This document shows, in pieces, positions 5,716 to 33,207 of a stretch of DNA of 38,914 nt. The notes beneath the pieces were generated by a model, which saw only the letters and a list, made by a program, of their open reading frames with translations, was not told the origin of the DNA and did not search any database. The DNA comes from an uncultured Candidatus Saccharibacteria bacterium (GTDB taxonomy: Bacteria; Patescibacteriota; Minisyncoccia; Minisyncoccales; UBA10102). A program made the position numbers and the translations under genes. The DNA lies in the NCBI GenBank assembly GCA_964471385.1, contig CAYYFJ010000001.1, forward strand, positions 19,133 to 58,046, given 5' to 3'. How positions within the stretch are numbered: position 1 is the stretch's first letter; the number at the start of each line of letters is the position of its first letter.

Positions 5716-5746
5716 CAGCTGTTCAAAAAACAAAACATCTCACAAC

Positions 5747-5775
5747 AAAAACAGACCCCTAGCGGGTCTGTTTTT
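5747..5775. terminator. Bidirectional Rho-independent terminator between convergent genes
   Basis: aaaaa-CAGACCC-ctagc-GGGTCTG-ttttt: a 7-bp stem flanked by an A-tract and a T-tract. Confidence 0.7.
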
Positions 5776-5813
5776 GTTGAGACAAACCAGGTTTGTTGAG
5801 ATAAACCAGGTTT
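5776..5813. repeat. Two tandem 19-bp units gttgaga(c/t)aaaccaggttt
   Basis: Read directly. Identity is 18/19. Each unit contains the mini-palindrome aaacc-a-ggttt. Confidence 0.7.
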
Positions 5814-5840
5814 ACTTAGCCCTGCCAGTCTTGATTGGGA

Positions 5841-7037: not shown

Positions 7038-7049
7038 GGTGGTTGTGCG

Positions 7050-9185
7050 TTACTCTTTCATGAGAATAAGCTCTATTTCTCTCGCGAATCTCCTTGCGGT
7101 GCGGCTGTTCAAGCCAACGCCTTTTTCGCGGAACGGCAAGTCAAGGACGCGGGCAAATTCTTCATTGCTGATTTTCCCGAGCAAACGGGAAAGTAAAACA
7201 TCTTCAAGACGTTTTACCTGATCAAACGACAGCTTGCCTTTGTACCCGTCAAGCAGATAGCCCCGCAGGTTTTGCGCCCTCTCTTCAAGAGGAGTCAGGG
7301 TCGGATAGGGCTCCTGCGATATCATTTTGATTTCCTCCACAAGCTTGCCGATATTTTCTGAAAGCTCGCGGGCTCTCTGCACGTACAGCCCCGCTCCTCC
7401 TTTTTCTTGGGGAGTGTTGAGCATGTGGAACAGCGCGGCTTTGGATATATTGTTAAGAATAAAGTTTTCAATGGTCTCTTCAATTCTCTGCTGGATGTCA
7501 ACCGCGTAGGGCAAAAGCAAGTGGTGCAGAATAAGCTTGGAGCGCAAACGGGATTCCGTAAGATACGGGTATGCCTGCGCCAACTGATCCAGTTCTGAAA
7601 TGCGCTCCGGGGTCAGGCGGCTGGGACCCGGCTTTCCCGCGTTTCTGACCACGCGCTCTATTTTGCCGTCCCGCATGAAGAAGACGCGGTTTGCGTAGTG
7701 AAGGTCCCGGGGATTGTGGGTTACATGGACCACGGTCTTGCCGTCTTTCCGGTTTATCTCTTCAAGCAATTTCAGCACAATGTCCGCGTTTTTAGAGTCA
7801 AGGTTTCCGACCGGCTCGTCGGCAAAAATAATGGAGGGGTTGTTCACAAGCGCCCTCGCAATGGATGTTCTTTGCTGTTGTCCCCCTGAAAGCATAGAGG
7901 GTTTTCTCGCGGCAAAATCCGCGATGCCGAATTTCTCCATGAGTTCCTGCACCCGCCGCTCGCGCTTTTGCGAAGGCACGCCCGCGAACACCTGAGGGAG
8001 CATAATGTTGTCCCGCGCGCTCAAATTGGGAATGAGATAATACGCCTGAAACACCATGCCAAGCGTCGTGCGATGGAACCAAATGAGCTCTTTGGCATTC
8101 ATGCGGGTCAGCTCTTTTCCTTCCACCTGAATTTTCCCCGCGGTGGTTCTTTCAAGCCCGGCAATCGCGTACAACAGCGTGGATTTTCCGCACCCTGACG
8201 GCCCGAAAAATGTAACATATTCTCCGGGATACACCTCAAGCGAAATGTCAGACAAGGCGCGCGTCTCATTGCTTTTTCCCATGTCATACACCACGCTCAC
8301 GCGCTCCAAGCGTATAAGCGGCGCCTGCCCTGCTGAAGAAATAGTTGCGCCTTCAACGCGTTCAGCTGGCGCGGCGGCGGCGCTGGAAAGAGCAGGGGGA
8401 ACAATATACTGTTTTTTCCGCCGCTGAAAAAACAAAAAAATCCCTGCGGCATTTATGCGCCCCAAAGAAAAAAGGGTTTTCAGGTAAAAAATGCCTCGCC
8501 AACATGCAAGCAACGCGCCTGCAATAGAAAAAAGCGTTTGCTTGCCTAATTGAATTATCCGCTGACCTGCCCGCCGCAGCTTGAGCATAGGCTGGCTTGT
8601 CTGACGCAGGCCATCCAAAAGAAACGAACGCAAATTTGTCCGCCGAAACTCCAGAAGCGAAGGCAAACGTTTCCACAGCAGTGCTGAGCTTTGCAGAAGA
8701 AACGCAGATAGAGGCTTCATCCTTTCTCGTATGGAAGAAAAAAACGCTGATAAGTCTTGCAGAATCTGCGTGAGTTCGCCGGCAGAAAAACGAGTAAAAT
8801 TGCCGGCCAAAAAAATCATATGTTCAATCCGCAGCTGAGAAGAATACAAAAACGATTCTTTCTTTAAGCCAATGTCGCCAACCCATTTCTTGATAAAAAC
8901 CGCAGGGCGTTCCCATTGGAAAGAACGCAAGAACGATTCTATGGAAAAGTTCGCGTCTTCAATCCATTTTTTTGCGGAAACTGCCGCGCGTTCCCAGTGA
9001 AACGCAGTGAGGCGCCCTGTTTGAGAAATCAAAGAAAAAATAAACAGAACGGATTGTTCCCACGCGTTTCGCGCGCCTTCCGCAGCATGCCAAACAAAGT
9101 CAAAACGAATGGACTGAATAAAATTGGAAAAACGGCGAATAATCTCCTTGAATCTTTCTTGCATATCTTCTCCCCAATACTTCAT
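7050..9185 (-). CDS. ABC transporter ATP-binding protein (MacB/LolD-like core) with about 290-aa N-terminal and about 200-aa C-terminal extensions
   Basis: Walker A GPSGCGKST, Q-loop, signature LSGGQQQR, Walker B IIFADEP, H-loop THN. The extensions are read from the ORF translation. Confidence 0.85.
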   Translation of the reverse strand: MKYWGEDMQERFKEIIRRFSNFIQSIRFDFVWHAAEGARNAWEQSVLFIFSLISQTGRLTAFHWERAAVSAKKWIEDANFSIESFLRSFQWERPAVFIKKWVGDIGLKKESFLYSSQLRIEHMIFLAGNFTRFSAGELTQILQDLSAFFSSIRERMKPLSAFLLQSSALLWKRLPSLLEFRRTNLRSFLLDGLRQTSQPMLKLRRAGQRIIQLGKQTLFSIAGALLACWRGIFYLKTLFSLGRINAAGIFLFFQRRKKQYIVPPALSSAAAAPAERVEGATISSAGQAPLIRLERVSVVYDMGKSNETRALSDISLEVYPGEYVTFFGPSGCGKSTLLYAIAGLERTTAGKIQVEGKELTRMNAKELIWFHRTTLGMVFQAYYLIPNLSARDNIMLPQVFAGVPSQKRERRVQELMEKFGIADFAARKPSMLSGGQQQRTSIARALVNNPSIIFADEPVGNLDSKNADIVLKLLEEINRKDGKTVVHVTHNPRDLHYANRVFFMRDGKIERVVRNAGKPGPSRLTPERISELDQLAQAYPYLTESRLRSKLILHHLLLPYAVDIQQRIEETIENFILNNISKAALFHMLNTPQEKGGAGLYVQRARELSENIGKLVEEIKMISQEPYPTLTPLEERAQNLRGYLLDGYKGKLSFDQVKRLEDVLLSRLLGKISNEEFARVLDLPFREKGVGLNSRTARRFAREIELILMKE

Positions 9186-9226: not shown

Positions 9227-12200
9227 TCAGAGGCCCACTCTCTTCATAAAGGTAAATGTGTCTTCAAAGTTGCGTATGATAAGGTCAACCACGGACTGGC
9301 GGGGCTTTGGAGTGAGTATGGTGTATGCGGTGGAAAGAGAGGTGTTGCCCGAAGGGTCGGAAGATTGCGCCTTAAACTGGTACACCCTGCCCGTTTTGAA
9401 CGCCGTGGTAATCACAATATGCTCGGTGACAAGAGCCGGATCCTCGGGAGTGTGGAGCTTGAAGTCCTGATTGGGATTGACGCCCTCAATGTAGAACACC
9501 TGCGAAGTGGAAGGTTTGTTTGTTTTCCATGAAATAATGGTCTGGGCGGTTTCCACGCGCTCGGGAATAAGGGAGGAAGTGACTCTGACCTGCGAGATTA
9601 TCGGGGGCTCCGTGGAAGCGGCGGTGGAAAAAGGTAAAAGAGAGGAACTGGAAGAGTTGCCTTCTTCGTCTTCTGCGGTAAGGCGCAGAATATACGCGGA
9701 CGAGGGCTTGAGATTTTCCAGAGTGAAGCTGTGGTCTTTGAGGTAGCTCTTATCTTCCTGCAAAATTTTCTTTCCGGTGGCGGCGTCCGTCGTTTCAACG
9801 ATGGTCCTCGTGGGAAGATCTGTCTTCCATACGAGAGCAACTTTGTCTTCTTTAATCTCCCTGAACTCGGCGTCCACAATCTCGGGATTCAAAGAGGCAG
9901 TGGCAAAAGTGCGGTCTTCTAACTTTGCCATGGGGCCGATCTGACCCTGCGACTGAATCTGATAGTGATAGGTTGTCCCGGGATTTAAGCCTGTCAGGGT
10001 GACCAAATGCTGGGTTACCTGTTCGTCCGGGGTGCCGACAGTGGTGGCGTAGGAATTCTCTTTTGCGGGATTGTATTCTTTGTCTGGCGCAAATGCGATC
10101 AAAGAGTTTGATTTTTTGTCGGTGGACCAGCGCACCACGGCCGATCTCGGGCCCGCAGACACCTCAATGTCAGACCCGTTGATGCTTGGAGCCGAAACAA
10201 TCTTGGACGACGCTTCCCTGATAGAAGAGATAAATCGCTCCTCGTCAATACTGCGCACGGTCCATCGCGTGGGAAACGCCTCAATAAACTGGTCAATGAA
10301 TGTCTGGGACGCGCGCTTCACGAATTCCGAAACGCCGATGCTTTCCACGCTTTGCTCAATGTTCTGCACTTTCAGGGTAATGGGCGACTGGGGCTCAAAA
10401 ATGGGAATTTCTTTTGTGGTCGGCTTTGGCTCCTCTCGTTTGGCTTCCTCTTTCTTTGCTTCCTCTTTTTTCGGCTCTTCTTTCTTTGTTTCAGCTTTTG
10501 GAGTTTCGGGCGTTTTTTCTTCAGTTTTTGGAACAGCGGGAGCAGTGCCCTCCGTGGTAAAGGATTGTTCAGACGAAGAGCCGAGATTGCCCGCGGTATC
10601 CTTGCCCTGCACAACAAAGTAATACGCGGTGCCCGGAGCAAGATTTTGAAGAGTCACCGTGTGGGAAGAAACGGATTCAAACTGGCCCGTCGTAACAGCG
10701 TACGCGCCCTTGGAGGTTCCATATTTCACAAAGGAGTCTGCGTATTCTGACGTGTCCCATGTAAGTACGGCTGAATTCTGGGTTATGGAAGAAACTTTAA
10801 TGCTTGAAATAGCCGGAGCCGTGGTGTCCTGCACGTTGCCATAGACAATCGTGGTGGATCCTGAAGGGGCAGATGTTGCAAACGAATACTTCTGGCCCGA
10901 GTTGTCGGAAGTGGTGGAATTGTTGGAACGGTCTTTGGAGATGACCTGATAATAATACATGGTTGCCGCGGTCAAATTGCTCAAGGTGACGGAATGCTCG
11001 GTGGTGTAGTTCGTGTCTTCTGTGGTGGAAGTGCCCAAAGAAACCGTGATGCCGTACTCCACCTTGGAGTTTGCGTCTTCGTTTGTTGTCCACGTAATGG
11101 TGGCTCCTGTTTGGCTGGTCAGAGCCGCAGTAACAGAAGAAATGGAAGGAGCCGTGGTGTCCTCGGCAACCTGAACCGCTTGGGAAGGATTGGTGGTAAA
11201 TGTCAGGTCTTTGGAAACCGCGGTGTTGTTGTCAGAGTCGGTTGACCTGACCCTGAAATGATACGCAATGTCGCTCAAAAGATCGGCGGGCAGACTGACA
11301 GTGTGCGAAGTCACGGAATCAAACTTGCCTGCGGTTCTGCCGTATGAAGTGTCAAACCCAAATTCCACAATGGAGGAGGCGGATTTGTTCGTTGCCCAGG
11401 TGACGGTGGCTGTCTGGGTGGTTACGTCTTTGATTTCAATATTGGAAATCACAGGAGGCGTGGAGCTTGAAGCGCCTGTGCCGAATGTGAATCCGTTGCC
11501 TCCGTTGTTTGCCGTGCCAATGTTGCCCGCGGCATCCGTTGACTTCACCCTGTAATAATACTGGGTGGAAGGAGTAAGGCCCACAAGAGTAATGGAGTGC
11601 GATGTTGCCATGGTGGGAGTTCCTTGAGAGAGCAGGAAAGACCCCGCGGTGACGGAATATTCAATCAAAGAGTCTGAAAGCTCGCCCGTGCTCCATGTAA
11701 TGGCGACAGAGGTTGCGGTTGACTCTGATGTTGTAACCGAAGAAATGACGGGAGCCGTGGAGTCGGCCGACGAAGACGCGGTGGTAAATGTCTGGTCTGC
11801 TGAAAGCTTTTCATTGCCCGCAGAGTCAGTTGACCTGACCCTATAATGATAGGGGGTGTTGGCAGTAAGGTCGCGGGGCATAGCGACGGAATGAGACGTG
11901 ACAGCGTCATACTGGCCCGCCACTCTTCCGTACAAGGTTGTGGCGCCGAATTCAACAAATGACGACGCCGATTCGCTGGTGGTCCAAGTGATGGTTGCGG
12001 TGTTGACTCCCGGAGTTCCGGATGAAATTTCGGATATGGTCGGAGCCGTGGTGTCAGAAGAAGCCGCTGTGGTGACAAAACTGCTTTGCGAAGAAAGGCT
12101 GGTGTTTCCTGCGGCGTCTGTGGAACGGACGCGGTAATAGTAGGTGGTGGAAGCATTGAGCACGGCAGGAAGCGTGACAGAGTGTGAAGTGACAGAGTCA

Positions 12201-15200
12201 AAAAACCCATACACCCCGTCAGCTGAAGGCGAGGCAAATCCCGACGAAGCGGACCACAACACAAAAGAATCAGCAGACTCGCTGGTTGTCCATGTGATAA
12301 TTGCCTTCTTTGAAGTGGCTCCCGAAGAAGAAACCGAAGAAATGTTGGGAGCAGTGATGTCGGCTGACGCTGTGGTAAAGCTGGACGCAGAAGATGTGGT
12401 GCTGTTGGTGGAAGGGTCAATAGACCTGACTTTGAAGTTATACGCGGTGTTGGGAGCTAATCCGACCAAAGTGACGGAGTGCGAAGTGACATACGAAGTC
12501 AGCCCTTGCGTGGAGGAATACGAGGTGTCTGTTGAATACAACACGGTGGAATCTGAAAGCTCGTCCGTGGTCCATGTTACGGTGACAGATGAAGTGTTGG
12601 GCGTGCCTGCCGCAACGGAAGATATCGCGGGTCCCGTGGCGTCAGACCCTCCTCCGCCCTCTCCGGCGTCCTGCGTGCCGTTGGCTTTTGCGCTAATGGA
12701 GAAGGAAAGGTAAGAAATGTCATCGTTGTTGTCCTGCGTGGAGATCTTGTAATAGTACAGAGTGTTAAGCACGGTGGAAGAATCGGCGTACGAGTTGGTG
12801 TTGATATTGGTAATGGTGGCAATGGAAGAAAAGCTTGTGCCGTCAGTTGACCTCATCACATTGTACTGCTTGAACGCGGCGGACGGAGGAGTCGCCGCGA
12901 CCTTCCAGGCAACGAACAACCGGTAATCCGCGGGAGATACTCTTGTGTTGGAAGTATCCTGAACCATGAGGGCTGTGGGAGTTTCAGGCGTGGTGGCGGA
13001 AACTGTGGTTGTGGTGTTGCCCCGCGCGTCGTAGAACTTCGCGTACACGACATCAGGGTCGGTTGCCAAGGCAAGAGTGGCGGAAGACGCGTATGAAACC
13101 TGCGACGCCCCCGCAAGATCCGAGTTGACGCTGACTTTCATTTGCAGTGCCGTGTCGTCCGTCGCAGAAAGCGTGACGCCAGCCGGGCTTGTGGTCGCAT
13201 CCACCGCAATGGAAGGAGAGCCAAGCGCCGGGTCTTTGGTGTCAAAACTAAAGCTTGCGGAGTCCGCGTTTCCGATGTTTTCAGATCCGTTGCCGTCATC
13301 CGCCACCACGCGCGTTACAGCGGTTGCCGAGTAAAAGCCGTCCACGTCCGACTTTGCGGTCCACACGATTGATTTGCCCGTCCCGTTCGTGATTGACGCG
13401 CCCGCGTTTCCCGAGACTGTCGCGGCTTTAATGTATATGGCGGTTCCCGAGTTGTGCGCCGCCGCGGTTGTGTTTGACACTCCGCGAGCTATGGTTCCCT
13501 GAAGGTCATTGCCCGATTTTGAGGTATAGGTGATGATCTCGCTTTCAATCATCAAGGTTCCGGAAGACGGGAAAAGCGACGAGCTGGAAACCGTGATCGC
13601 TGTGGTGTCGTTTGATGTCAAAGACTCGTTCACTGTGGCAAGAGACTTGTAATACAAAGACACTGTGGTTGAAGACTGCACGGCGTCTGTCACGTCATAG
13701 CCGACTGTTACCGCGCCGGCTGAACTCTGCGATGCCGTCACATTGGAAACCGTTGGAGGCGAGGTTTTGGTAATGGTGTCGCTCACCGTGCTTGAGGTGT
13801 TTCCCTTCGCATCTTTGAACTGCACGTACACAGTCTTGGTGCCGTCTCCCGCAGTAAGGGTCCATGAGGCAACAGATGTGTTGAATGTGATCCAGTTGCC
13901 AGAGTCGTTGTTCAGACCGTCCGCGGCAAGGCCGCTGTCGTTTGAAATCTTCATCTGCCCCGACACGCCAGAACTCATGTTGTCATCCGTCGCGGCAAGC
14001 GTAAGCGCGACGGTAAACGAAGTGGTGGTTGCGGCGGCCGCGGCGATTGAAATGGAAACGCTCGCGGGATTTTTGGTGTCCAGTGCGTAGTTCGCCGATG
14101 TCGCGCTTCCAACTTGGTTCGCAGACGCGCCATCGTTTGCCGCAACCCTCACGGTCGCGGTTGCAGAATAATATCCGTCAAGATCGGTTTTGGCTGTCCA
14201 TGTAATACTCTTGCCTGTGCCATTTGCGACCGAGCCGGTCGAGCCGGAGACGGTCACGGCTTTTATCCAGATCGTTGCGCCGCTACTATGCGCCGCGGCA
14301 AGCGTGTTTGACGCGCCCCGCGTTATTGTTCCGGCAAGATCGTTTCCGCTCACCGAGGTATAGTTGATTTGTTCGTCGTCAATAAAGACGGTTCCCGACG
14401 ACGGGATATTTGTTGCCGCGGAAAGCGTGATCGCCGTGGTATCAGAGTTTGAGAGCGACTCGTTAAGCGTTACGCCGACCTGATAAAGGAGGGTGACCGT
14501 CGTAGAGGAAGATTCATTATCGGTGACATCGTAGCCCACCGTAACGGTTCCGTTCGATCCCTGCGAAGCGGTGAGGTTGGAGACAGTGGGAGGAGAGTTA
14601 ACGAACGTAAACGATAATGACTGCGGAGGATCCTCGGTGAGCGTCCCCGAAAAACCTCCCGTATTCTTCGCGCGCGAGCGGATCTGATAAGTATGGTTCA
14701 ATGTCCAAGCGACAGAAGACGTACTGTACGACCATGTCGCGGTTCCGGTTGCAGCGATCCAGTTCTCTGATGTCTGATCAAAAGAATTATTTGAAGAGTT
14801 GTACCACTTGTTGACCGAAACATCAGTGTCTTTGATGGAAATCTCAACACTCGTCATGGGCCCTGATCCTGTTCCTCGGAGCGCGGTCACGCTGTACGGC
14901 TCCTGCGGGCTTGCCGCGGCTCCCGCGACGGTACAGCTGTTTCCAGTTGCACTACATATGGCAGTAATCGCTGAAGATGGCGGATATTCATAAAGAGTAC
15001 CCGCAGCACCGGCATTCGCTCCACTTCCTCCAGTTTTAGTCACAGAACCGGTAAAGGTGCTGCCCCCTGTAATATTAAGAGCGATCCTCCCTCCTCCTCC
15101 GCCGCCGCCATGACTATCGCCACCTCCACCATTCGCGGTAATAGAACCGGCTCCGGCAAGCGTGCCAGCTTGAATCCAGACGGAACCGCCCGATCCTCCG

Positions 15201-17752
15201 CCGCCGTCACGTGCCGAATTGTTAACATTAAATTGTCCATCACTACCATTTGCCACAATAGAACCAGACAAAGTTAATGTCCCTGTGATGATCAATTTAA
15301 CGGCTCCTCCCCCCGCTCCTCCAGTAGCATCGTACCCTCCTCCTCCTCCAGAACCAAGCGCAGTGGGCTGAGTGTTTGATCCATGCGTAATTCCTCCGCC
15401 CCCGACAGATCCATTACCTCCGGCCCCCCCATACCCTCCTCCCCCTCCTCCTCCAGAACTGCCCGCTCCGCTTCCTCCTCCTGTGCCGGATCCATTACTA
15501 GTACCTGTTGCAGCACCGGCGCTGCCTCTACCGTTAAGGCCAATGGAACCGGTAATGGTTGCATTTCCGCTTGCGTTGATCACTAATGCGGTTCCAGTGG
15601 CAGGATGAGAAAGAGTTCCACCGGAGTTAATGGTAAATGTGGTGGTCGTGATTGTTCCGCTATTGTAATTTACAAAATTGCTGATAGTAACGCTGTCAAA
15701 TGTCGCCGCGGAAATATTGTCAGCATTCGCAACTGCGCTGTCGTTCGCGTTGCTGTCCCAAATCAAGTCTCCATTTGTTTGTGAAGCAGACTTTTTGAGC
15801 ACGGTTCCGGGGCCTCCGCGCCGATTTCCAGTTCCTCCGTACGCAGTGGGAGTAATGGAAGAAGAATCAGTTGTATAATGAACTGCAATTCTTCCTCCCG
15901 CTCCACCCCCTCCATGGGTATCTCCGTTTCCACCACTCGCGGTAATGGAACCGGCTCCCGCAAACGTGCCCGTCTGAATCCAGACGGAACCGCCCGATCC
16001 TCCGCCGCCGTCTCGGGCTTCATAACCAGATGCATTTACATCTCCATTATTACCATTAGCTGTAATGGAGCCCGAGACAGTAAGTGTTCCCGAAACAATG
16101 AATTTTACAGCTCCTCCGCCTGATCCGCCACTACCGTCGTACCCTCCTCCTCCTCCAGAACCAAGAGCGGTGGGCTGAGTGTTTGATCCATGCGTAGCCC
16201 CTCCCCCCCCTACAGCTCCACTGCCTCCGGATCCTCCATATCCTCCTCCCCCGCCTCCTCCAGAACTGCCCGCTCCACTTCCTCCTCCTGCGCCGGTTCC
16301 ATTACTTGTACCTGATCCACCGGCGCTGCCCTTTCCATTCACGTTGATAGAACCTCCCGATTGCACATCAAGCGTAACGGCAGTTAAAGAAGTCAAATTT
16401 CCGCTAATGGTTCCCCCTGATTGAATGGTCACTGTTGAAGAGCCGCCGGACATATTGACGGTAAATGCGTTCGTGCCGGAAGCGGTGATTGTGCCCCCGT
16501 TCGCAACGGTAATATTGCCCGTGCCGGAAATGGTGTCTCCGTTGTTCATAGTGTTGCTGGAAGAGACCGTGCAGGTGTCGTTGAGCGTTCCCGTGTTGCA
16601 GGCAAAGTTGTGCGCCTTGGCGTTTTCCGTCTCGCCGAACGATAAGGCGATCCAATGCCTGCCGGAGCTCACCGCAGTGTTTCTGATTTTTGAGGTTTTG
16701 CCATCGCACGAGTAGCCGGGAACGGTCAGCGTGTCAGAATCCATCCAATCAATTTGGCTGTTTGGCACTTGGTTTTCACCGCAAAAAATTCCTTCAAAAC
16801 TGATGTCATCCGGGTAATGGGTGCCGTCAGCCGCCTGAATTTTTAAGTCGGACTGCGAGAATGTCCTGAAACTCGTTTCCCAGTAATCTCCCGTTGTAAG
16901 GTTTGACTCAACATTCAAAATCTCAAGATAGGCGCCGGCAAGTGCGGAAAAGTGGGAGGTTGAAAACGCGATGGAATTTCCTTTGTCTTTGGGAGCGGCG
17001 GAAGCAACCTCCCACTCATCGCAAGAGGAAGTTTCCTGATTGAATTTTTCAGTCGGACAGGAAAGCACCGCATTTACTTTTTCTTCGGGAGAAATCTTTT
17101 GAAGAGAAATGTCTGCCTGTTTGAAAGACAAAGCTCTGTCGTCAACAAAAACAATTTTTGTTTTAATCTGTTTGTCTTTTTTTGCGTCTGGGTTTGAGAG
17201 CTGGACTGAAAGCGGCTGGGACGGCTGGGAAGAAAGCCCCTTGATTTCAAGGCCCACAAAATTGTTCTGAACTTTCAATTGGTATGTCTTCGTTTTCTTC
17301 TCTTCATACAAAGACCCGAAAAGAAATTCATTGGAATTTGCTTCGCGATCCGCAATCTTCACGGGAACCTGCGCGGTGTACACAAGCGCGGGTTCTGACG
17401 GCTTTTGAATAAAAGAGATAAATTGAGAAAACAAAAAAATCCCCATCGCCAGCGACGGAATCACGATAAAAGAAAAAAGAGAAACGGCCGCTATACAGTC
17501 TCTAAAGCTCCGTCTCCAAAGAAACGGGGTTTCCAAAACAGCTTGACCGCTCTTGCGGCTTGCAGTGTTCTTATAGTTTCTTGTTCTCAATCCCGAGCTT
17601 TGCCGAGAGGGTAAGGGAAGATGATGGTTTGCGTGGCTTGCGCCGGCGCGCGAACTCAAAACGGACCTCTTCTTGGTCTTTCTTTTTTTTGATTTCAGCT
17701 GAACAGGTTTCTTGAGAGACAAAATAATTTTCGCCTTTCCTGGCATATTCAT
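9227..17752 (-). CDS. Giant (2841 aa) N-terminally anchored surface protein with glycine-rich modules, two 150-aa repeats, at least 10 FN3/purple-acid-phosphatase-N-like repeats and a K/E-rich linker
   Basis: Uninterrupted 8.5-kb ORF. Basic N-terminus plus a TM helix (CIAAVSLFSFIVIPSLAMGIFLF). Repeated pattern (A/P)P.IS.....T....A.ITW.T.E.A.S.V.Y......Y.......TSHSVTL..L...T.YYYRV.S.D..GN. The second ATG lies 6 nt downstream at 17744-17746. Confidence 0.88.
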   Translation of the reverse strand: MNMPGKAKIILSLKKPVQLKSKKRKTKKRSVLSSRAGASHANHHLPLPSRQSSGLRTRNYKNTASRKSGQAVLETPFLWRRSFRDCIAAVSLFSFIVIPSLAMGIFLFSQFISFIQKPSEPALVYTAQVPVKIADREANSNEFLFGSLYEEKKTKTYQLKVQNNFVGLEIKGLSSQPSQPLSVQLSNPDAKKDKQIKTKIVFVDDRALSFKQADISLQKISPEEKVNAVLSCPTEKFNQETSSCDEWEVASAAPKDKGNSIAFSTSHFSALAGAYLEILNVESNLTTGDYWETSFRTFSQSDLKIQAADGTHYPDDISFEGIFCGENQVPNSQIDWMDSDTLTVPGYSCDGKTSKIRNTAVSSGRHWIALSFGETENAKAHNFACNTGTLNDTCTVSSSNTMNNGDTISGTGNITVANGGTITASGTNAFTVNMSGGSSTVTIQSGGTISGNLTSLTAVTLDVQSGGSINVNGKGSAGGSGTSNGTGAGGGSGAGSSGGGGGGGYGGSGGSGAVGGGGATHGSNTQPTALGSGGGGGYDGSGGSGGGAVKFIVSGTLTVSGSITANGNNGDVNASGYEARDGGGGSGGSVWIQTGTFAGAGSITASGGNGDTHGGGGAGGRIAVHYTTDSSSITPTAYGGTGNRRGGPGTVLKKSASQTNGDLIWDSNANDSAVANADNISAATFDSVTISNFVNYNSGTITTTTFTINSGGTLSHPATGTALVINASGNATITGSIGLNGRGSAGAATGTSNGSGTGGGSGAGSSGGGGGGGYGGAGGNGSVGGGGITHGSNTQPTALGSGGGGGYDATGGAGGGAVKLIITGTLTLSGSIVANGSDGQFNVNNSARDGGGGSGGSVWIQAGTLAGAGSITANGGGGDSHGGGGGGGRIALNITGGSTFTGSVTKTGGSGANAGAAGTLYEYPPSSAITAICSATGNSCTVAGAAASPQEPYSVTALRGTGSGPMTSVEISIKDTDVSVNKWYNSSNNSFDQTSENWIAATGTATWSYSTSSVAWTLNHTYQIRSRAKNTGGFSGTLTEDPPQSLSFTFVNSPPTVSNLTASQGSNGTVTVGYDVTDNESSSTTVTLLYQVGVTLNESLSNSDTTAITLSAATNIPSSGTVFIDDEQINYTSVSGNDLAGTITRGASNTLAAAHSSGATIWIKAVTVSGSTGSVANGTGKSITWTAKTDLDGYYSATATVRVAANDGASANQVGSATSANYALDTKNPASVSISIAAAAATTTSFTVALTLAATDDNMSSGVSGQMKISNDSGLAADGLNNDSGNWITFNTSVASWTLTAGDGTKTVYVQFKDAKGNTSSTVSDTITKTSPPTVSNVTASQSSAGAVTVGYDVTDAVQSSTTVSLYYKSLATVNESLTSNDTTAITVSSSSLFPSSGTLMIESEIITYTSKSGNDLQGTIARGVSNTTAAAHNSGTAIYIKAATVSGNAGASITNGTGKSIVWTAKSDVDGFYSATAVTRVVADDGNGSENIGNADSASFSFDTKDPALGSPSIAVDATTSPAGVTLSATDDTALQMKVSVNSDLAGASQVSYASSATLALATDPDVVYAKFYDARGNTTTTVSATTPETPTALMVQDTSNTRVSPADYRLFVAWKVAATPPSAAFKQYNVMRSTDGTSFSSIATITNINTNSYADSSTVLNTLYYYKISTQDNNDDISYLSFSISAKANGTQDAGEGGGGSDATGPAISSVAAGTPNTSSVTVTWTTDELSDSTVLYSTDTSYSSTQGLTSYVTSHSVTLVGLAPNTAYNFKVRSIDPSTNSTTSSASSFTTASADITAPNISSVSSSGATSKKAIITWTTSESADSFVLWSASSGFASPSADGVYGFFDSVTSHSVTLPAVLNASTTYYYRVRSTDAAGNTSLSSQSSFVTTAASSDTTAPTISEISSGTPGVNTATITWTTSESASSFVEFGATTLYGRVAGQYDAVTSHSVAMPRDLTANTPYHYRVRSTDSAGNEKLSADQTFTTASSSADSTAPVISSVTTSESTATSVAITWSTGELSDSLIEYSVTAGSFLLSQGTPTMATSHSITLVGLTPSTQYYYRVKSTDAAGNIGTANNGGNGFTFGTGASSSTPPVISNIEIKDVTTQTATVTWATNKSASSIVEFGFDTSYGRTAGKFDSVTSHTVSLPADLLSDIAYHFRVRSTDSDNNTAVSKDLTFTTNPSQAVQVAEDTTAPSISSVTAALTSQTGATITWTTNEDANSKVEYGITVSLGTSTTEDTNYTTEHSVTLSNLTAATMYYYQVISKDRSNNSTTSDNSGQKYSFATSAPSGSTTIVYGNVQDTTAPAISSIKVSSITQNSAVLTWDTSEYADSFVKYGTSKGAYAVTTGQFESVSSHTVTLQNLAPGTAYYFVVQGKDTAGNLGSSSEQSFTTEGTAPAVPKTEEKTPETPKAETKKEEPKKEEAKKEEAKREEPKPTTKEIPIFEPQSPITLKVQNIEQSVESIGVSEFVKRASQTFIDQFIEAFPTRWTVRSIDEERFISSIREASSKIVSAPSINGSDIEVSAGPRSAVVRWSTDKKSNSLIAFAPDKEYNPAKENSYATTVGTPDEQVTQHLVTLTGLNPGTTYHYQIQSQGQIGPMAKLEDRTFATASLNPEIVDAEFREIKEDKVALVWKTDLPTRTIVETTDAATGKKILQEDKSYLKDHSFTLENLKPSSAYILRLTAEDEEGNSSSSSLLPFSTAASTEPPIISQVRVTSSLIPERVETAQTIISWKTNKPSTSQVFYIEGVNPNQDFKLHTPEDPALVTEHIVITTAFKTGRVYQFKAQSSDPSGNTSLSTAYTILTPKPRQSVVDLIIRNFEDTFTFMKRVGL
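9305..12645 (-). repeat. Intragenic array of FN3-like units of about 90-95 aa (7 units at about 10545-12645, K/E-rich linker at about 10395-10540, 3 divergent units at about 9305-10195)
   Basis: Periodicity read from the translated protein. Boundaries are approximate, within about 30 nt. Confidence 0.65.
13290..14600 (-). repeat. Intragenic duplication: two modules beginning PPTVSN(L/V)TASQ...TV(T/S)L(L/Y)Y... (about 14130-14600 and about 13290-13765)
   Basis: The two protein segments align residue by residue over about 150 aa (for example GTITRGASNTLAAAHSSGATIWIKA against GTIARGVSNTTAAAHNSGTAIYIKA). Spacing is about 835 nt. Confidence 0.7.
15066..16349 (-). repeat. Intragenic duplication of a glycine-rich module (about 15066-15547 and about 15874-16349)
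   Basis: The DNA segments ggctgagtgtttgatccatgcgta...cctcctccagaactgcccgctcc... recur about 805 nt apart. Proteins: GSAG.SGTSNG.G.GGGSGAGSSGGGGGGGYGG.GG.G.VGGGG.THGSNTQPTALGSGGGGGYD..GG.GGGAVK.I..GTLT.SGSI.ANG...ARDGGGGSGGSVWIQ.GT.AGAGSITA.GG.GD.HGGG..GGRIA. Confidence 0.8.
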
Positions 17753-20413: not shown

Positions 20414-21139
20414 CTATTTGTCAAGATAAAGTGAAGAATCATACTGCTCGTATTGTTTGCCCTCTATAACACTCTCAACGAATTCTTTATACTCTTGCGA
20501 ACTTGGAAAAAGCAAGCCGGCGATTCCTTTTTCCGCAACAACGGATTCCCGGAGCCCAAGATATTCTTTGTGAGTACTCCATGGGTATTCCTCGGCAAAT
20601 TTCAAAATTGCTTTTGCGTTCAATACTCCTCTATTCTTTAAATCTGGTTCTACGAGCTGTCCCGGATTGACAACATGCAAATACGCGAGCAAGTATTTCA
20701 TTTGGTCATCGTTTTCAACGCGCACGGCGCGAAAAGGACCTTGAAACAATCCTCCAACGCGGGCATATCTTTCGTTAAAATACTTGGCAAATCCCATGCC
20801 AAGTTTATGCATAAAATTTGAGATGCCGCGTTCTTGGAGCTCTTCAAGAACTAAATGATAATGATTCGGCATAAAACAATCGGCAATAATCCGTACAAGC
20901 GGTGTTCGCACCGGCACTATTTCTTCAAGAGATGCGCGCAATGTTTTAAAATTTAAACGCTTTTTTCTCACGGCAAGATCCCATAAAAGCCGGTGCGAAG
21001 TCGTCTTGTTATTAAATAAGAAGAGCGCTTGGAGAAATCTCCAGCGATCCGTGTCGTCAAGAAAAATATCGCGTTTCTCAACGCCCCGGTTGAATATATG
21101 GTAAATTCCCCCAACCTCAAACTTCAAGTATCTGCTCAT
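20414..21139 (-). CDS. REP-associated tyrosine transposase (RayT / IS200-like Y1 HUH transposase family)
   Basis: YHIFNRG near the N-terminus. HUH motif in CFMPNHYHLVL. FMHKLGMGFAKYFNERY.R.GGLFQG.F. Catalytic Tyr region YLLAYLHVVNP, then YPWSTH. ATG at 21137-21139 (an alternative GTG at 21154 would add 5 aa). Confidence 0.85.
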   Translation of the reverse strand: MSRYLKFEVGGIYHIFNRGVEKRDIFLDDTDRWRFLQALFLFNNKTTSHRLLWDLAVRKKRLNFKTLRASLEEIVPVRTPLVRIIADCFMPNHYHLVLEELQERGISNFMHKLGMGFAKYFNERYARVGGLFQGPFRAVRVENDDQMKYLLAYLHVVNPGQLVEPDLKNRGVLNAKAILKFAEEYPWSTHKEYLGLRESVVAEKGIAGLLFPSSQEYKEFVESVIEGKQYEQYDSSLYLDK

Positions 21140-21149
21140 AACGATTAAA

Positions 21150-21334
21150 GACACTTAGGACACTTAGGACACTTGAGACACACGGAGTGTGTCTCCGACA
21201 CGGAATCGATTATCTGTCAACCCCATTTCCACGCCTCCTACTAAAAAGTGAGGTTTCGGAGACACACGGTTCGGAGACACGGTTCGGAGAGACACACGGA
21301 GTGTGTCTCCGACACGGAAATTGATATCTGTCAA
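21150..21334. repeat. Complex REP-A cluster 5' of the RayT-like gene: 3 x 9-bp gacactt(a/g)(g/a); two 46-bp direct repeats each starting with the hairpin (21175-21220 and 21289-21334); three tandem half-sites ttcggaga(ga)cac(ac)gg (21255-21299)
   Basis: Read directly. Hairpins are gagacacacggagtgtgtctc at 21175-21195 and 21289-21309, both followed by cgacacggaa..gat.atctgtcaa. Confidence 0.85.
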
Positions 21335-26725: not shown

Positions 26726-29203
26726 ATGACAACCATCATACTGCTGGTTTTCTTTTTCGCGATTGCCGGCTTTGCCATTTCCATTGCCGGCTTTGTCTTC
26801 CAAAAAAGAGAAGGCGGCATTCTGAGGCGCGCTCTTCAGCTTGTGCTTTTAAGAGTAACCGTTGCGCAAGCGGCGCAGGAAAAAGAAGTTGCGGTACAAG
26901 ATTATCTCAAGCTCGGAGAGCAGTTTTTTTCTTCGCTGTCTGGCATTCTGGAGCATAACACGATGAAAAAAATTGTCTCGGGCAATCCGTTTTTCGTGTT
27001 TGAAATCGCGGTCCACCGGATCGGAGAAGAAATTCATTTTTACATGGCATGCCCCCGCAATGCGGCAGAACTGATTGAAAAACAAATCTTGAGTTTTTGG
27101 CCGCGCGCGCAGGTTGAAAAAACAGAAGATTACAATATTTTCAATCCGTCCGGATATTCCGCCGGAGCCGTGGCATCTCTGGAGCGTCCCGCGGTGTTTC
27201 CTTTAAAACCGATAGAAGAATTCACGGCAGACCCTTTGGCCGCAATCGCCGGAATTTTCACCAAGCTTGAAAAAGAAGGGGAAGGAGCGGCAATCCAGAT
27301 TCTTGTGAGGCCTTCGGCGCACAGCTTCCGCAAGGTCGGAGAAAAGACAATTGAATTTCTCCAGCAAGGGTCAAATCCCGCGGAAGCCGCGCGTGCGGCG
27401 CATCAAACGTCAGAAACCGCGAAAACAATTTACAGCATCATACAAATGATCGCCAGCGGTCCCCGCACGCCTGAAAAAGACCAGCAGTATGCGACGGCGC
27501 AACATAAGCCGGAACCAAACAATCCTTTGCTTCAGTATCAAATCGCCGCAATCGGGAAAAAAGCGACACAGCCCATTTTTGATTCTTCCGTGCGCATTGT
27601 GGCATCCGCGAAAACCCATCAAAGAGCCGATGAAATTTTGGAGCAGATGAAAAACGCGTTCAGTCAATTTTCCGCGCAGGCCTCAAACCAGTTTTCGTTC
27701 AAAGACGTTGCGGGGAAAAAGCTGAAAAAACTGTTCTACCAGTTCTCATTCCGCGTATTCCCGGACAAAAATATTATGTCGCTTTCATCGGGAGAACTCG
27801 CCGCAATCTTCCATTTCCCTTCTCCGAATCTCATTCAAACGCCGCGCATGAAATGGCTTAAAACAAAACAGTCCCCTCCTCCGGCGAATCTCCCGGACCA
27901 AGGCATTGTGCTTGGAAAAAATATATTCCGGGGCGAAGAACAGTTCGTGCGCATGCTGCCAGACGACCGGGGGCGGCATTTATATGTGGTGGGACAAACG
28001 GGCACGGGAAAATCCGGGTTTCTTCACGAGATGATACGCCAGGATATTGAAGAAGGAAAAGGAGTCGCGCTCATTGATCCGCATGGAGATTTTGCGGAAG
28101 CGATTCTTGGCACAGTGCCCCCCTCAAGAGCCGAGGATGTCATTTATTTCAATCCGGGGGACACGGAACGGCCGCTCGGGCTCAATATGCTTGAATACGA
28201 CCAAAACTTTCCGGAATCCAGAACGCTCGTAGTCAACGAAATCCTTGAAATTTTTGAAAAGCTGTACAACCTGAAAGCAATGGGGTTCGGCGGACCCATG
28301 TTTGAACAATACATGCGCAACGCCCTTTTATTGGTTATGGAAGATCCCGGGAGCGGCAGTACGCTTATTGAAATTCCGCGCGTGTTAGCCGACGTAAATT
28401 TTAGAAAATACAAGCTCGCGCGATGCAACAACATTGTCGTGCGCTCGTTCTGGGAACTGGAAGCGGAGAAAGCGGGAGGAGAAGCCGCGCTTGCAAACAT
28501 GGTGCCGTATATCACCAGCAAAATGAATGTGTTTATTGCAAACGATCTGGTGCGCCCCATCATTGCCCAACAGAATTCCGCCCTGCGCTTCCGGGAACTT
28601 ATGGATGAGGGCAAAATCCTTATTGTCAATCTCGCGAAAGGCATGATCGGAGACACCAACAGCTATCTGCTCGGCATGATCATCGTAGGCAAGCTTCTTA
28701 TCGGAGCGTTCTCAAGGGCAAATATCCCCGACGAAGCGCAAAGAAAAGATTTTTATCTTTACATTGACGAATTCCAGAACGTAACCACCAAAAGCATTGT
28801 CAACGCGCTCTCGGAGGCAAGAAAATACCACCTCAACCTTATCATCGCCCATCAGTTTATCGGACAGCTTGACGAGGATACGAGGAAAGCGATTTTTGGA
28901 AATGTCGGATCAATGTTTGCTCTGCGCGTGGGAGCGGACGACGCAAAATATCTTGCTCCCCAGTTTGCTCCGGTATTTGAGGAAAATGACCTGATGAATT
29001 TTGACAACCGCAACGGCGCGCTCCGCCTGCTCCTGCAAGGAGAAAGCAGTAGGCCGTTCTCGCTTGCCACACTTCCTCTCAAAAAAGGAAATACTGAAAC
29101 CGCGGCAATGCTGAAAAATCTCTCCCGCCTCAAATACGGCAAAAACCGGGATGACGTGGAATCGGAACTTTCCGGGCGCCTGCGCCATTTCCAAAATCCA
29201 TAG
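26726..29203 (+). CDS. VirD4/TraD/TrwB-like (type IV coupling protein-like) P-loop ATPase with N-terminal TM helix and about 400-aa unknown domain
   Basis: Walker A VVGQTGTGKSGFL; ALIDPHGDF; Walker B FYLYIDEFQN; ARKYHLNLIIAHQFIGQL...FGNVGSMFALRVG resembles the TraD/TraG C-terminal module. Confidence 0.78.
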   Translation: MTTIILLVFFFAIAGFAISIAGFVFQKREGGILRRALQLVLLRVTVAQAAQEKEVAVQDYLKLGEQFFSSLSGILEHNTMKKIVSGNPFFVFEIAVHRIGEEIHFYMACPRNAAELIEKQILSFWPRAQVEKTEDYNIFNPSGYSAGAVASLERPAVFPLKPIEEFTADPLAAIAGIFTKLEKEGEGAAIQILVRPSAHSFRKVGEKTIEFLQQGSNPAEAARAAHQTSETAKTIYSIIQMIASGPRTPEKDQQYATAQHKPEPNNPLLQYQIAAIGKKATQPIFDSSVRIVASAKTHQRADEILEQMKNAFSQFSAQASNQFSFKDVAGKKLKKLFYQFSFRVFPDKNIMSLSSGELAAIFHFPSPNLIQTPRMKWLKTKQSPPPANLPDQGIVLGKNIFRGEEQFVRMLPDDRGRHLYVVGQTGTGKSGFLHEMIRQDIEEGKGVALIDPHGDFAEAILGTVPPSRAEDVIYFNPGDTERPLGLNMLEYDQNFPESRTLVVNEILEIFEKLYNLKAMGFGGPMFEQYMRNALLLVMEDPGSGSTLIEIPRVLADVNFRKYKLARCNNIVVRSFWELEAEKAGGEAALANMVPYITSKMNVFIANDLVRPIIAQQNSALRFRELMDEGKILIVNLAKGMIGDTNSYLLGMIIVGKLLIGAFSRANIPDEAQRKDFYLYIDEFQNVTTKSIVNALSEARKYHLNLIIAHQFIGQLDEDTRKAIFGNVGSMFALRVGADDAKYLAPQFAPVFEENDLMNFDNRNGALRLLLQGESSRPFSLATLPLKKGNTETAAMLKNLSRLKYGKNRDDVESELSGRLRHFQNP

Positions 29204-31121: not shown

Positions 31122-31165
31122 CAAAGGGCTCCGAATATTCGGAGCCCTTTTCTACGGCATCAGGT
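31122..31165. repeat. 44-bp direct repeat DR1 containing the 28-nt perfect palindrome aaagggctccgaat|attcggagcccttt (bidirectional terminator shape)
   Basis: Identical base for base to 33164-33207. The flanking bases differ (g/g here, t/c there). Confidence 0.95.
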
Positions 31166-31170
31166 GTAAG

Positions 31171-31200
31171 AAAAAACCTCTGCCACAATCGCGGCAGAGG
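31171..31200 (-). terminator. Rho-independent terminator belonging to the cassette
   Basis: Minus strand reads CCTCTGCC-gcgattgt-GGCAGAGG-TTTTTT, starting 4 nt after the TAA at 31204-31206. Confidence 0.75.
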
Positions 31201-31203
31201 GGT

Positions 31204-32445
31204 TTACTTCCGCTTCACGCCAAGAATGACGTAAGGGAAGTAGAAGGGAGAACGGAACGAAAACTTGCGCTCTTCTCCCGGCATGACAAACGTCGTCTGG
31301 CGACAGGCGATGAGTGCACGGCCGGGATAGAGGAGAGGCGAGAGACCAAGCAATAGCGCTCTCTCCCTTGCGTCAGTGGCCGCGAAGAGGGAGTGCGCCG
31401 TTTTGTTCTGGAACACCCCCGCCGCCACATCGAGTGAGACTGTGCCGAGGGCGAAGAGTTTTTCGCCGTGCGGCACAGTGCCCATGTTCCCAAGCCAACC
31501 AGCCAGTATCTCAACTTCTTCTGGCGCGATGGTGAGCTTGGTAACATGCCTGTCTCCCAGGCAGACGGCGATTCGCCGAAGAGCTTCCCGGTAGAGCTCC
31601 AGCATCCCTCCTCCAATCCACTTGGGATGTGGCTCTCCGGCTATAGCGACAGTTCCTCCGCCGTCAGCAAGAGGAAAATTTTTCTTCATGAAGCAGGCGA
31701 GATCCCACTGGATGGACCTCGTCTCGCCCGCCGCCTCTAAGAGGGATTTGGCGGGAATGGCGTGAAGCCGAGCTTTTTCCACAAGCATCCGCAGGTGGAT
31801 AAGCTCGCCGGCAGACAAGCTGCGTCCTTCCGCAGCCGCCCGACTCTTCGTCCCTTCCTGAAACCTCAGGACCTCCTTCCTCAATCTCTCAATGGGAGGC
31901 GGCGCAATCTCCGCCTCGAGGCGAATCGCGAACAGTCGGGCATCGCGGTGTGCAACCTGGAACTCCTCCTGCCGCGATCCCGCAAACTGGGTCGCAACTG
32001 CCTCAAGGAACCACCGCGCCCACGCGTCATACCGGCGAGCGATTTCCTCCGCTCGCGCGACTTCTTCTTCCTTGGAGCGCAGACGTTGCTCCAAGCCACC
32101 GATCCGCAGAGTCAGTTCGGCAACCTGGCTCCGCAAGCTACGCTCCTCACGCCGGACAAAGACGTAACCCTGGCGGAACTCCCGGAGCGCCTCGTCGAAT
32201 CGCGCGCGATTCTTGAGGAGCTCAAGAGCCTTGGAGAACCGTAGAGTGTTCGCGGCAGCTTCGCCACCCCGTAGATCAGGATGAGCCTTTGCCATAAGGT
32301 TCCTGGCAATTTGCCGACAGTGATCGTAGAGATCGCCGTCGGAAAGCCCCAGACCCAAAATCTCCGGGGTGATCCCGATGAGAGCGAGTGGATTTTCCTC
32401 CTCGCCCTCGCCACGCAAGCGGCGGACAAGGTCTCTACCGAGCAT
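31204..32445 (-). CDS. J-domain (DnaJ-like, HPD motif) protein with central coiled coil and uncharacterised C-terminal domain of about 200 aa
   Basis: Residues about 18-95, NPLALIGIT...LYDHCRQIARNLMAKAHPDLRGGEAAANTLRFSKALELLKN...RFDEAL, align to the J-domain helix II-HPD-helix III pattern (compare E. coli DnaJ [33 protein letters not shown]). Residues about 100-150 are an Arg/Glu-rich heptad region. GGAGGAG SD lies 5 nt upstream of the ATG. Confidence 0.7.
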   Translation of the reverse strand: MLGRDLVRRLRGEGEEENPLALIGITPEILGLGLSDGDLYDHCRQIARNLMAKAHPDLRGGEAAANTLRFSKALELLKNRARFDEALREFRQGYVFVRREERSLRSQVAELTLRIGGLEQRLRSKEEEVARAEEIARRYDAWARWFLEAVATQFAGSRQEEFQVAHRDARLFAIRLEAEIAPPPIERLRKEVLRFQEGTKSRAAAEGRSLSAGELIHLRMLVEKARLHAIPAKSLLEAAGETRSIQWDLACFMKKNFPLADGGGTVAIAGEPHPKWIGGGMLELYREALRRIAVCLGDRHVTKLTIAPEEVEILAGWLGNMGTVPHGEKLFALGTVSLDVAAGVFQNKTAHSLFAATDARERALLLGLSPLLYPGRALIACRQTTFVMPGEERKFSFRSPFYFPYVILGVKRK

Positions 32446-32446
32446 C

Positions 32447-33097
32447 TTACTCCTCCCTCAAGGAATATTTATTCAAGAGCTCGATCACATCGTCGAAGTC
32501 GCGGACACAGAACACGCCGCCTCCGCCCTGTGTCGCATGCTCGGCGATATGGCCGAGGATAATCCCCATCCAAGCGGGCAGAGGAAGCCTGCTCCTCACA
32601 CCCGCGCCACGCAGGATCGCGTGAAGGTTGTTCTCCACCATCTCAACGATGTCAACGGCGTGCTCGCCGTATGCCATCGCTAATTTGGTGGCAACACGCA
32701 CGGTCGGAACACTGCGAACGCCGAGCTCCCAGAATCTCTCGAGAAGCTCTAGGGCAATGGCGAGGTAGTCGCCAACTTCCACCATGGTGTTCACGACAAG
32801 GTTTTCTCCGACCACTCGGTCCTCAAGATCCCTTGCCGTGAGCTTCCGTTCGCCAATCAACTCCCGGAAGATCTTCCCGAAAGTCTCCGGCAACGTCGCG
32901 CGCCGCAACCGAAGCGAGAGCGCAACCTCCAAATAGACTTGCTGTTCCAGAGGCGCAGGCAACGCGTCCTGAATCCTCCGGACCAGCGCCTCGGGAGACC
33001 ACTTGAGTCTCCTTGCGAGCGCCGTGACACCCTGTCCATCAACGGACAGGCTTCCGTCGGGATTCCGCGGAACAAGAGCCCTCTTCCCATCAGCCAT
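32447..33097 (-). CDS. Hypothetical protein (216 aa), first gene of the cassette, family not recognised
   Basis: ATG at 33095-33097 preceded by AAGGAGGAG. The stop TAA (32447-32449) is 1 nt from the downstream ATG. The composition is Arg/Ala/Leu/Glu/Val-rich, unlike the neighbouring genes. Confidence 0.7.
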   Translation of the reverse strand: MADGKRALVPRNPDGSLSVDGQGVTALARRLKWSPEALVRRIQDALPAPLEQQVYLEVALSLRLRRATLPETFGKIFRELIGERKLTARDLEDRVVGENLVVNTMVEVGDYLAIALELLERFWELGVRSVPTVRVATKLAMAYGEHAVDIVEMVENNLHAILRGAGVRSRLPLPAWMGIILGHIAEHATQGGGGVFCVRDFDDVIELLNKYSLREE

Positions 33098-33163: not shown

Positions 33164-33207
33164 CAAAGGGCTCCGAATATTCGGAGCCCTTTTCTACGGC
33201 ATCAGGT
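33164..33207. repeat. 44-bp direct repeat DR2 (identical to DR1), which also serves as the terminator of the DUF378 gene
   Basis: Starts 6 nt after the DUF378 stop codon (33214-33216) in the minus-strand sense. Confidence 0.95.

Follow-up and report, generated by a model that had tools for sequence, protein, structure and literature searches.

Our analysis indicates that gene B, a reading frame on the minus strand of a 38,914-nucleotide stretch of DNA from an uncultured Candidatus Saccharibacteria bacterium (contig CAYYFJ010000001.1; the whole stretch is called the window below), probably encodes a specialized, class C J-domain co-chaperone that forms one unit with gene A, its cotranscribed upstream neighbor. 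As judged from family profiles and residue conservation, the N terminus of B is a J domain that is divergent yet recognizable, its HPD loop intact and its helix II basic. The A-B pair is a conserved operon across Patescibacteria, not a one-off cassette, and its sequence features mark it as an accessory module of that lineage that appears to move horizontally and to have entered this genome recently. The pair would recruit the DnaK of its host to the product of A or to an A-linked target.

Gene B encodes a divergent J domain

The open reading frame (ORF) of B runs for exactly 413 codons from an ATG at 32445, which lies 1 nt past the stop codon of A and follows an AGGAGG-type ribosome-binding site (GGGAGGAG), to the stop at 31204 (Table 1). 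NCBI holds an identical protein, [quoted passage not shown], and the products of both genes are labeled hypothetical there, their source being a Candidatus Wildermuthbacteria metagenome-assembled genome (MAG). We found no literature on the B family.

A sequence-only reading of this DNA had placed a J domain with an HPD motif at the N terminus of B. That domain becomes visible in profile searches because homologs are included; the single protein is insufficient. Single-sequence searches of B against Pfam, NCBIfam, PADLOC, and PDB returned coiled-coil noise only, and a word-indexed homolog search found B itself and nothing else, or just four proteins when run with a 92-sequence profile, a poor yield that is likely explained by coiled-coil words saturating the candidate list. 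An exhaustive HMMER search recovered about 158 homolog clusters (at least 158, defined at 50% identity) at an expect value (E) of ≤1e-3, with 42 at E ≤ 1e-10. Another route to the family was provided by distant homologs of gene A, each of which adjoins a downstream B-like gene.

Profiles built from these homologs bear out the predicted J domain. When 50 N termini were combined into a profile and searched against PDB with hmmsearch, all 44 matches at E ≤ 1 were J-domain proteins, the best being Escherichia coli DnaJ (E = 1.8e-4). The full-length profile of 92 sequences likewise had J domains as its top 37 PDB matches, headed by human DNAJB1 (E = 1.8e-5), and the matches listed beyond these were mostly generic coiled coils. 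HHalign aligned the family N terminus with seven canonical J domains, whose sequences were entered by hand, at 96.4% probability (E = 1.4e-9), covering helices I to IV and pairing IGL with ILGV in helix I and R..FD with KR..YD in helix IV. The DnaJ family PF00226 is the only Pfam family that recurs among the homologs (18 of 92; best E = 2.3e-5), and a full-length Nealsonbacteria homolog with 32% identity carries the UniRef label "J domain-containing protein."

The residues expected of such a domain are strongly retained. Across the 92 sequences, H55 and D57 are each found in 91 and P56 in 71; the full HPD is present in 69, among them the window protein. Basic residues occupy two helix II positions (K/R48 in 85 sequences, K/R44 in 73), and A73 (88/92), F83 (90/92), and L87 (82/92) are conserved farther along the domain, a pattern that fits a working J domain. 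In the window protein, the parts follow one another as helix I (NPL...IGI), an extra short helix (27 to 30), helix II (36 to 53, ending ...CRQIARNLMAK), the HPD at residues 55 to 57, helix III (65 to 78, ANTLRFSKALELLK), and helix IV, which begins at residue 80 (RARFDEAL...EFR). All of the elements that the sequence-only reading had named, namely helix II, HPD, helix III, and RFDEAL, are thus in place, and they agree with the secondary structure predicted by AlphaFold2.

The AlphaFold2 model itself depended on the alignment: from the single sequence it reached a predicted local distance difference test score (pLDDT) of 44 and was unusable, while the alignment of 92 homologs gave a pLDDT of 87.1 and a predicted template modeling score of 0.72. 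Helices are modeled at residues 2 to 10, 19 to 23 and 27 to 30 (both short), 36 to 53, 65 to 78, and, uninterrupted, 80 to 151, followed by an alpha/beta region from 157 to 413; pLDDT is about 89 to 96 across residues 11 to 100. The predicted four-helix pattern of the J domain rests on this modeled secondary structure together with the profile alignment. We count the domain identities of B among the established results, along with the conservation pattern, the linkage of A to B, the restriction to Patescibacteria, and the marks of recent insertion; dimerization, contact between A and B, stimulation of DnaK, and any role in the cell are inferences.

Does the J domain activate Hsp70?

Several observations weigh against B acting as a DnaK-directed co-chaperone. 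A PF00226 search with the window protein on its own, the check that the sequence-only reading had suggested, failed at E ≤ 10 for both the full length and residues 1 to 96, even though homolog profiles do recover the domain, and none of the 92 homologs meets the Pfam gathering score (bit scores of 17 to 20 among those shown, compared to a cutoff of 27.8). Relative to canonical J domains, HHalign places a 5-residue insertion after helix I and makes helix II 4 residues longer. As for the structure prediction that had also been suggested, the four-helix pattern appears in the secondary structure of the model, but the Foldseek matches of the whole model to J-domain folds lack statistical significance (E range of 0.27 to 2.1 over PDB and BFVD). 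In favor of the J domain, the top PDB match is the J-domain protein 2ej7 at a template modeling score of 0.51, and the top five BFVD matches are J-domain proteins as well, with CroV DnaJ/Hsp40 at a probability of 0.87 and none at E ≤ 0.1. Furthermore, Pro56 is replaced by Ser, Glu, Thr, or Arg in 21 of the 92 sequences (HSD in 9, HED in 6, HTD in 5, and HRD in 1). Canonical J domains rarely tolerate replacement of this proline, which makes the variation unusual, and the portion of the family that carries it may be unable to stimulate Hsp70. Lastly, dnaK was not found within the 38.9-kb window. On the other side, retention of DnaK, DnaJ, and GrpE is reported for Patescibacteria at large (PMC12641178). 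The dnaK passage of a TM7x transcriptome paper concerns the host bacterium and not the CPR cell, and we did not draw on it.

The variable proline, the insertions, and the Pfam scores below the cutoff would also be expected if the domain were of J descent and had become a structural or interaction module that does not activate Hsp70, as in Pam16/Tim16. The tight linkage of A even to short forms of B (see below) would suit such a scaffold, in which the N-terminal part could be the domain that binds A. This is the alternative that survives best, and we nevertheless consider it unlikely. Of the 92 sequences, one lacks the motif His and one the Asp, the HPD is complete in the window protein, and the basic helix II positions persist in 73 to 85, a tight conservation for which an Hsp70 contact of the kind seen in PDB 5NRO (PMC10410713) is the simplest explanation.

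Coiled coil and C-terminal domain

A heptad-rich stretch after the J domain had also been noted from the sequence, and it proved to be a single long helix in the model, in which helix IV continues without a break. Residues 80 to 151 keep one unbroken heptad register, with hydrophobic residues at 86% of the a and d positions, compared to 57% in shuffled sequences (P of about 0.0002). Charged residues make up 42% of this segment, and its pLDDT exceeds 90 over most of its length.

The C-terminal domain has no family match, as the sequence-only reading had held, but its size is about 255 aa, not the 200 proposed there. Strands are predicted at residues 169 to 181, 300 to 314, 330 to 336, 377 to 382, and 401 to 412, mostly with pLDDT above 85. 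We found no fold match in PDB or BFVD and no sequence match in Pfam or PDB. The conserved positions are G334 (92/92), S/T335, P370, G375, P184, and Y/W285, and no acidic, basic, His, or Cys position of this domain is conserved across the 92-sequence alignment, hence none of a catalytic type. Because the conserved residues are Gly, Pro, Ser, and hydrophobic, with G334 invariant, the domain points to a putative binding module rather than an enzyme.

The protein has no CxxC motif, no glycine/phenylalanine-rich (G/F) region (G plus F amount to 11% of residues 90 to 160, which follow the J domain), and no transmembrane helix (the maximum Kyte-Doolittle value for a 19-residue segment is 1.49). Pfam DnaJ_C and zinc-finger domains were missing both from B and from the Pfam families that its 92 homologs match. 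Lacking a G/F region, a zinc finger, and a transmembrane helix, the gene B product is best read as a class C J-domain protein, and its separation from the DnaJ, CbpA, and DjlA architectures, already made in the sequence-only reading, stands.

Table 1. Positions of the A-B pair, its domains, and the flanking repeats in the window
Feature	Position	Strand	Basis
Direct repeat copy 1, made of the hairpin that terminates the upstream DUF378 gene and 16 further nt	33164..33207		Perfect 44-mer
Gene A, 216 aa, partner conserved upstream of B, with a probable all-alpha fold	32447..33097	minus	Linkage, profile searches
Gene B, 413 aa, probable class C J-domain protein with a coiled coil and an alpha/beta domain	31204..32445	minus	ORF call, NCBI identity, family, AlphaFold2 model
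Divergent J domain, residues 18-91	32173..32394	minus	HHalign, PDB profile searches, Pfam on homologs, conservation
HPD tripeptide codons CAT CCT GAT, residues 55-57	32275..32283	minus	Direct sequence reading; loop between predicted helices 36-53 and 65-78
72-residue continuous helix, heptad coiled coil extending J-domain helix IV, residues 80-151	31993..32208	minus	AlphaFold2, heptad analysis
C-terminal alpha/beta domain, residues 157-413, about 255 aa, no known family	31207..31977	minus	AlphaFold2
Intrinsic-terminator-like hairpin directly 3' of gene B stop (CCTCTGCCGCGATTGTGGCAGAGG + TTTTTTCTT)	31177..31200	minus	Sequence analysis
Direct repeat copy 2, immediately past gene B's own terminator	31122..31165		Perfect 44-mer; terminator-like hairpin

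Gene A is the fixed partner of gene B

Among the nonredundant loci in which B has the alpha/beta domain, 34 have readable upstream DNA and could be tested; in 32 of these, B immediately follows a homolog of gene A. The stop codon of A and the start codon of B are adjacent or overlapping; most gaps range from −8 to +5 nt, and an overlap of 1 to 8 nt is usual. The two loci without an upstream A, L030 and L059, carry a 324-aa variant. Gene A also adjoins complete B proteins that consist of the J domain and the coiled coil only (L002, L013, and L102), and the A-B connection is thus independent of the alpha/beta domain. Since A is still paired with B where that domain is lacking, the link probably runs through the J domain or the coiled-coil part of B.

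The A protein, whose conserved motif is LPAxxEQQ(I/V)YL, has no match in Pfam, NCBIfam, PADLOC, PHROGs, or PDB. Pfam scans of 30 A homologs and PDB profile searches yielded nothing save designed helical repeats and one neighboring HicA domain, and no J-like or Hsp70-like sequence was seen in A. Because designed helical-repeat proteins are the only ones that resemble it, at E > 0.03 in the PDB profile search, an all-alpha fold is suggested. The HicA toxin domain (E = 5.5e-8) belongs to a single locus, L080 (11958 to 12971, minus strand), where it lies in frame directly upstream of A, perhaps as a gene of its own, perhaps as part of a fusion.

The pair is restricted to Patescibacteria

When 185,579 species representatives were scanned with a degenerate DNA pattern of 120 nt, which recognizes about half of the family, 17 loci matched. 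Patescibacteria account for 16 of them, comprising Saccharibacteria, Nealsonbacteria, Minisyncoccia, and less precisely named Patescibacteria MAGs. The seventeenth, in Marinilactibacillus, was discarded as a chance match, as neither an A nor a B gene is present there. With all 16 true genome matches in Patescibacteria, the pair is confined to that lineage and sporadic within it. The sequence-only reading would have been overturned if profile searches had given no J-domain match and the predicted structure had lacked the four-helix J fold, or if the homologs had formed a known housekeeping co-chaperone family. Family profiles do recover the J domain, and the homologs do not belong to such a family.

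A protein about 161 aa long is abundant in high-GC soil contigs and joins the same J-domain variant (starting VTKNPLTMIGLTPAIL...HPDR) to a short leucine-zipper-like coil. It accounts for 90 of 119 metagenome loci (L026 to L144, for example, L032 at 5649 to 6134) and has no A gene; its neighbors include phosphoenolpyruvate mutase-like and molybdopterin oxidoreductase-like genes, both judged by eye. In the soil-metagenome proteins P0036 and P0170, the J variant and coiled coil are fused to a C-terminal HTH_17 domain (excisionase/AlpA-like) that matches at E = 2e-4, under the Pfam cutoff; the JGI name for P0036 is "AlpA." A fusion to an HTH_17-like domain was seen in one cluster.

Evidence for horizontal movement

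In the window, A-B is flanked by the two copies of a perfect 44-bp direct repeat, where shuffled sequences gave an expectation of 0 by chance. The 2.0-kb insert bracketed by this repeat differs in composition from its surroundings, with a GC content of 0.596, compared to 0.492 in the flanks, and a third-codon-position GC content (GC3) of 0.68, compared to 0.54. A promoter-like sequence upstream of A was recognized by eye and is not in the consensus-scan list. No integrase, transposase, or recombinase gene lies within the insert. About 10 kb from the insert, a 246-aa ORF (20414 to 21154, minus strand) has a weak match to IS200-like Y1 transposases (E = 5e-5). A search of metagenome contigs with the repeat hairpin, for an empty site or a related strain, gave no match, and the cassette contains no structured RNA at Rfam thresholds.

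A second, independent Patescibacteria genome presents a comparable arrangement. At locus L020, A-B stands between the copies of a mosaic direct repeat about 226 bp long (4906 to 5075 and 6963 to 7131). The ends of this repeat are perfect over 46 and 45 nt, and its middle, which includes a terminator hairpin, is 83 to 85% identical. The duplicated segment stops about 70 nt before the start codons of A and of the next gene (7201 to 7554).

Composition was compared over 35 nonredundant loci, with flanking ORFs chosen crudely, so that the figures are approximate, especially for high-GC loci. The GC3 of A plus B exceeds that of the flanks by more than 0.10 in 12 loci, by a maximum of 0.41 (Wilcoxon P = 0.015), falls at most 0.09 below it, and matches the host in about half of the loci. 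The pair stands out as foreign in the window and in L020, L024, L025, and L133, and its GC3 stays near 0.5 to 0.6 even where the host GC3 is 0.17 to 0.34 (e.g., L025, L133, L024, and L020). Because A plus B have elevated GC3 in low-GC3 hosts, these data suggest repeated recent transfer from higher-GC donors. The sequence-only reading had described an acquired two-gene module. That description suits this genome, in which the insert is bracketed by repeats and compositionally foreign; across the family at large, the pair is a conserved operon in at least 158 clusters and usually stands among housekeeping genes.

A phage origin of the pair was considered and is ruled against by the lack of any copy in IMG/VR and of any PHROGs match for A or B.

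Neighboring genes and alternative roles

An alternative is that A-B is a mobile toxin-antitoxin, abortive-infection, or other defense or addiction system by which DnaK is used or monitored. In keeping with such a conflict module, the operon is compact, has two genes, and is distributed sporadically; its composition is foreign in about a third of the loci, two copies are bracketed by repeats, and the HicA domain lies in frame directly upstream of A in L080. There is also precedent for DnaJ-dependent phage sensing in bNACHT25 (PMC12169576). We give this alternative slightly less weight than a J-derived scaffold. Searches with PADLOC-DB 2.0 gave no match for A and, for B, only a coiled-coil-level match to RTasRmuC (E = 0.017); neither protein has a toxin-family, nuclease, kinase, or pore domain or conserved catalytic residues; the pair is missing from PHROGs and IMG/VR, as stated above; and its neighbors are housekeeping genes, not defense islands.

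These neighbors vary from locus to locus and are mostly of the housekeeping type, including DnaB, RmuC, RecR, tRNA synthetases, and groESL. None accompanies A-B consistently, and the same holds for a link to heat shock, as groESL adjoins the pair in one lineage only: at L004 (6273 to 11334, Saccharibacteria), A-B lies between an M48 (HtpX-like) peptidase gene and groEL/groES, a heat-shock-type setting not found in other lineages. Pfam RmuC was detected in three neighbors, and DnaB occurs near A-B in three loci. Directly upstream of A in three loci is a conserved gene that encodes about 347 aa and is probably of the RmuC family (L009, 886 to 1929; L018, 4556 to 5593; and L024, 2507 to 3553). 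Homologs (34 to 40% identity) of the 825-aa TrwB/VirD4-like ATPase of the window (26726 to 29203) also occur near A-B, in L002 (2318 to 4084) and L024 (4970 to 7717). The RmuC and TrwB/VirD4-like neighbors could stem from synteny within a clade, or they could hint at a weak connection with DNA transactions. Elsewhere in the window, a single ORF of 8.5 kb on the minus strand (9227 to 17752) encodes 2,841 aa.

It is improbable, and the least probable of the three alternatives, that the pair is a vertically inherited, lineage-specific housekeeping co-chaperone for a core machine of Patescibacteria, such as DNA replication and recombination or a cell-surface apparatus, for although chromosomal housekeeping neighborhoods, host-like GC3 in about half of the loci, the groES/groEL and M48 peptidase adjacency in L004, and the RmuC and DnaB neighbors could be so explained, the pair is rare (16 of 185,579 species representatives, as found with a pattern able to detect about half of the family), has no consistent neighbor, and is clearly foreign in the five loci named above.

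A model for A-B and its relation to known J-domain systems

For the reading that we prefer, a class C co-chaperone acting with A, we propose the following model. B would dimerize via its coiled coil, and its J domain would dock on ATP-bound host DnaK and trigger ATP hydrolysis. DnaK would then clamp onto one particular protein kept close by. A itself is the most likely client or adaptor and would probably sit on the J-proximal or coiled-coil part of B, because B variants without the alpha/beta domain are also linked to A. That domain would in turn serve as an extra targeting or binding module, not as an enzyme. A possible outcome is the remodeling or activation of A, or of something bound by A.

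By definition, a class C J-domain protein has its client selected by its non-J part and sets off Hsp70 through its J domain (PMC10410713), a logic that B presumably shares. Like HscB and DjlA, which are of this class (type III), B joins an HPD-containing J domain to a targeting region unlike that of DnaJ and is devoid of the G/F region, the zinc finger, and the DnaJ C-terminal domains. Unlike HscB, it has no HSCB_C match, and no iron-sulfur assembly (isc/suf) family is among the neighbor families listed. Unlike DjlA, in which an N-terminal transmembrane helix and a TerB-like domain precede a C-terminal J domain, B has its J domain at the N terminus, and the protein has neither a transmembrane helix (with the hydropathy maximum given above) nor a TerB match. 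The class A and B proteins DnaJ and CbpA differ from it by a G/F-rich linker, the beta-sandwich domains of the DnaJ C terminus, and, in class A, a CxxCxGxG zinc finger. Unlike the known class C proteins, moreover, B has a J domain that contains insertions and scores under the Pfam cutoff, a helix IV that continues into a 72-residue coiled coil, a C-terminal alpha/beta domain that matches nothing, a near-obligatory upstream partner, and a family range restricted to Patescibacteria plus the short soil form.

J proteins paired with a dedicated partner are found in Pam18-Pam16 and in DjlB/DjlC-HscC, and B is similarly tied to one specific, coinherited partner. Unlike those partners, A bears no sequence resemblance to J or Hsp70 proteins, nor does a dedicated Hsp70 gene adjoin the pair in any of the loci examined. 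J proteins are also carried by viruses and mobile elements, as in the polyomavirus large T antigen, Rki of phage RB43, and the DnaJ-like proteins of giant viruses and phages. By analogy, A-B would be a horizontally moving unit that brings its own J domain for the host Hsp70, and the best structural neighbors of B in BFVD are viral J-domain proteins, none of them at significant scores. Unlike the viral proteins, the B family is not found in viral contigs or phage families and its non-J parts have no similarity to theirs; unlike the viral carriers, A-B has no replication, integration, or capsid genes.

This analogy leads to a bolder reading, which we regard as possible but doubtful: A-B could be a self-contained, horizontally moving, Patescibacteria-specific module whose own J protein commandeers the only Hsp70 of the host for the benefit of the module. 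DnaK-dependent remodeling of A might then govern a DNA transaction, for example, or else an addiction switch or a sensor of infection. If true, this would give bacteria a new class of mobile systems that hijack chaperones, with a logic like that of the J domain of the viral T antigen.

A new class C J protein is unsurprising in kind, since class C proteins with unknown partners are common: 2,712 class C J-protein architectures have been counted, many with domains of unknown function, and the class is the least understood (PMC10410713). What is new here is the family itself, its fixed partner gene, and the unmatched C-terminal domain, together with the relaxed proline of the HPD motif, the restriction to Patescibacteria, and the evidence of horizontal movement of the pair. 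The genetics recently developed for Saccharibacteria could test A-B.

Where Hsp70 acts is decided by J-domain proteins, and A-B offers a clean, compact case, in which a single J protein goes with a single fixed partner and current libraries recognize no further domain, in minimal-genome bacteria in which specialized proteostasis is almost unstudied. The pair supplies a new alpha/beta domain and a new, probably all-alpha protein for structural and functional study. Because it moves between genomes, it may also reveal how a mobile unit exploits the chaperone of its host.

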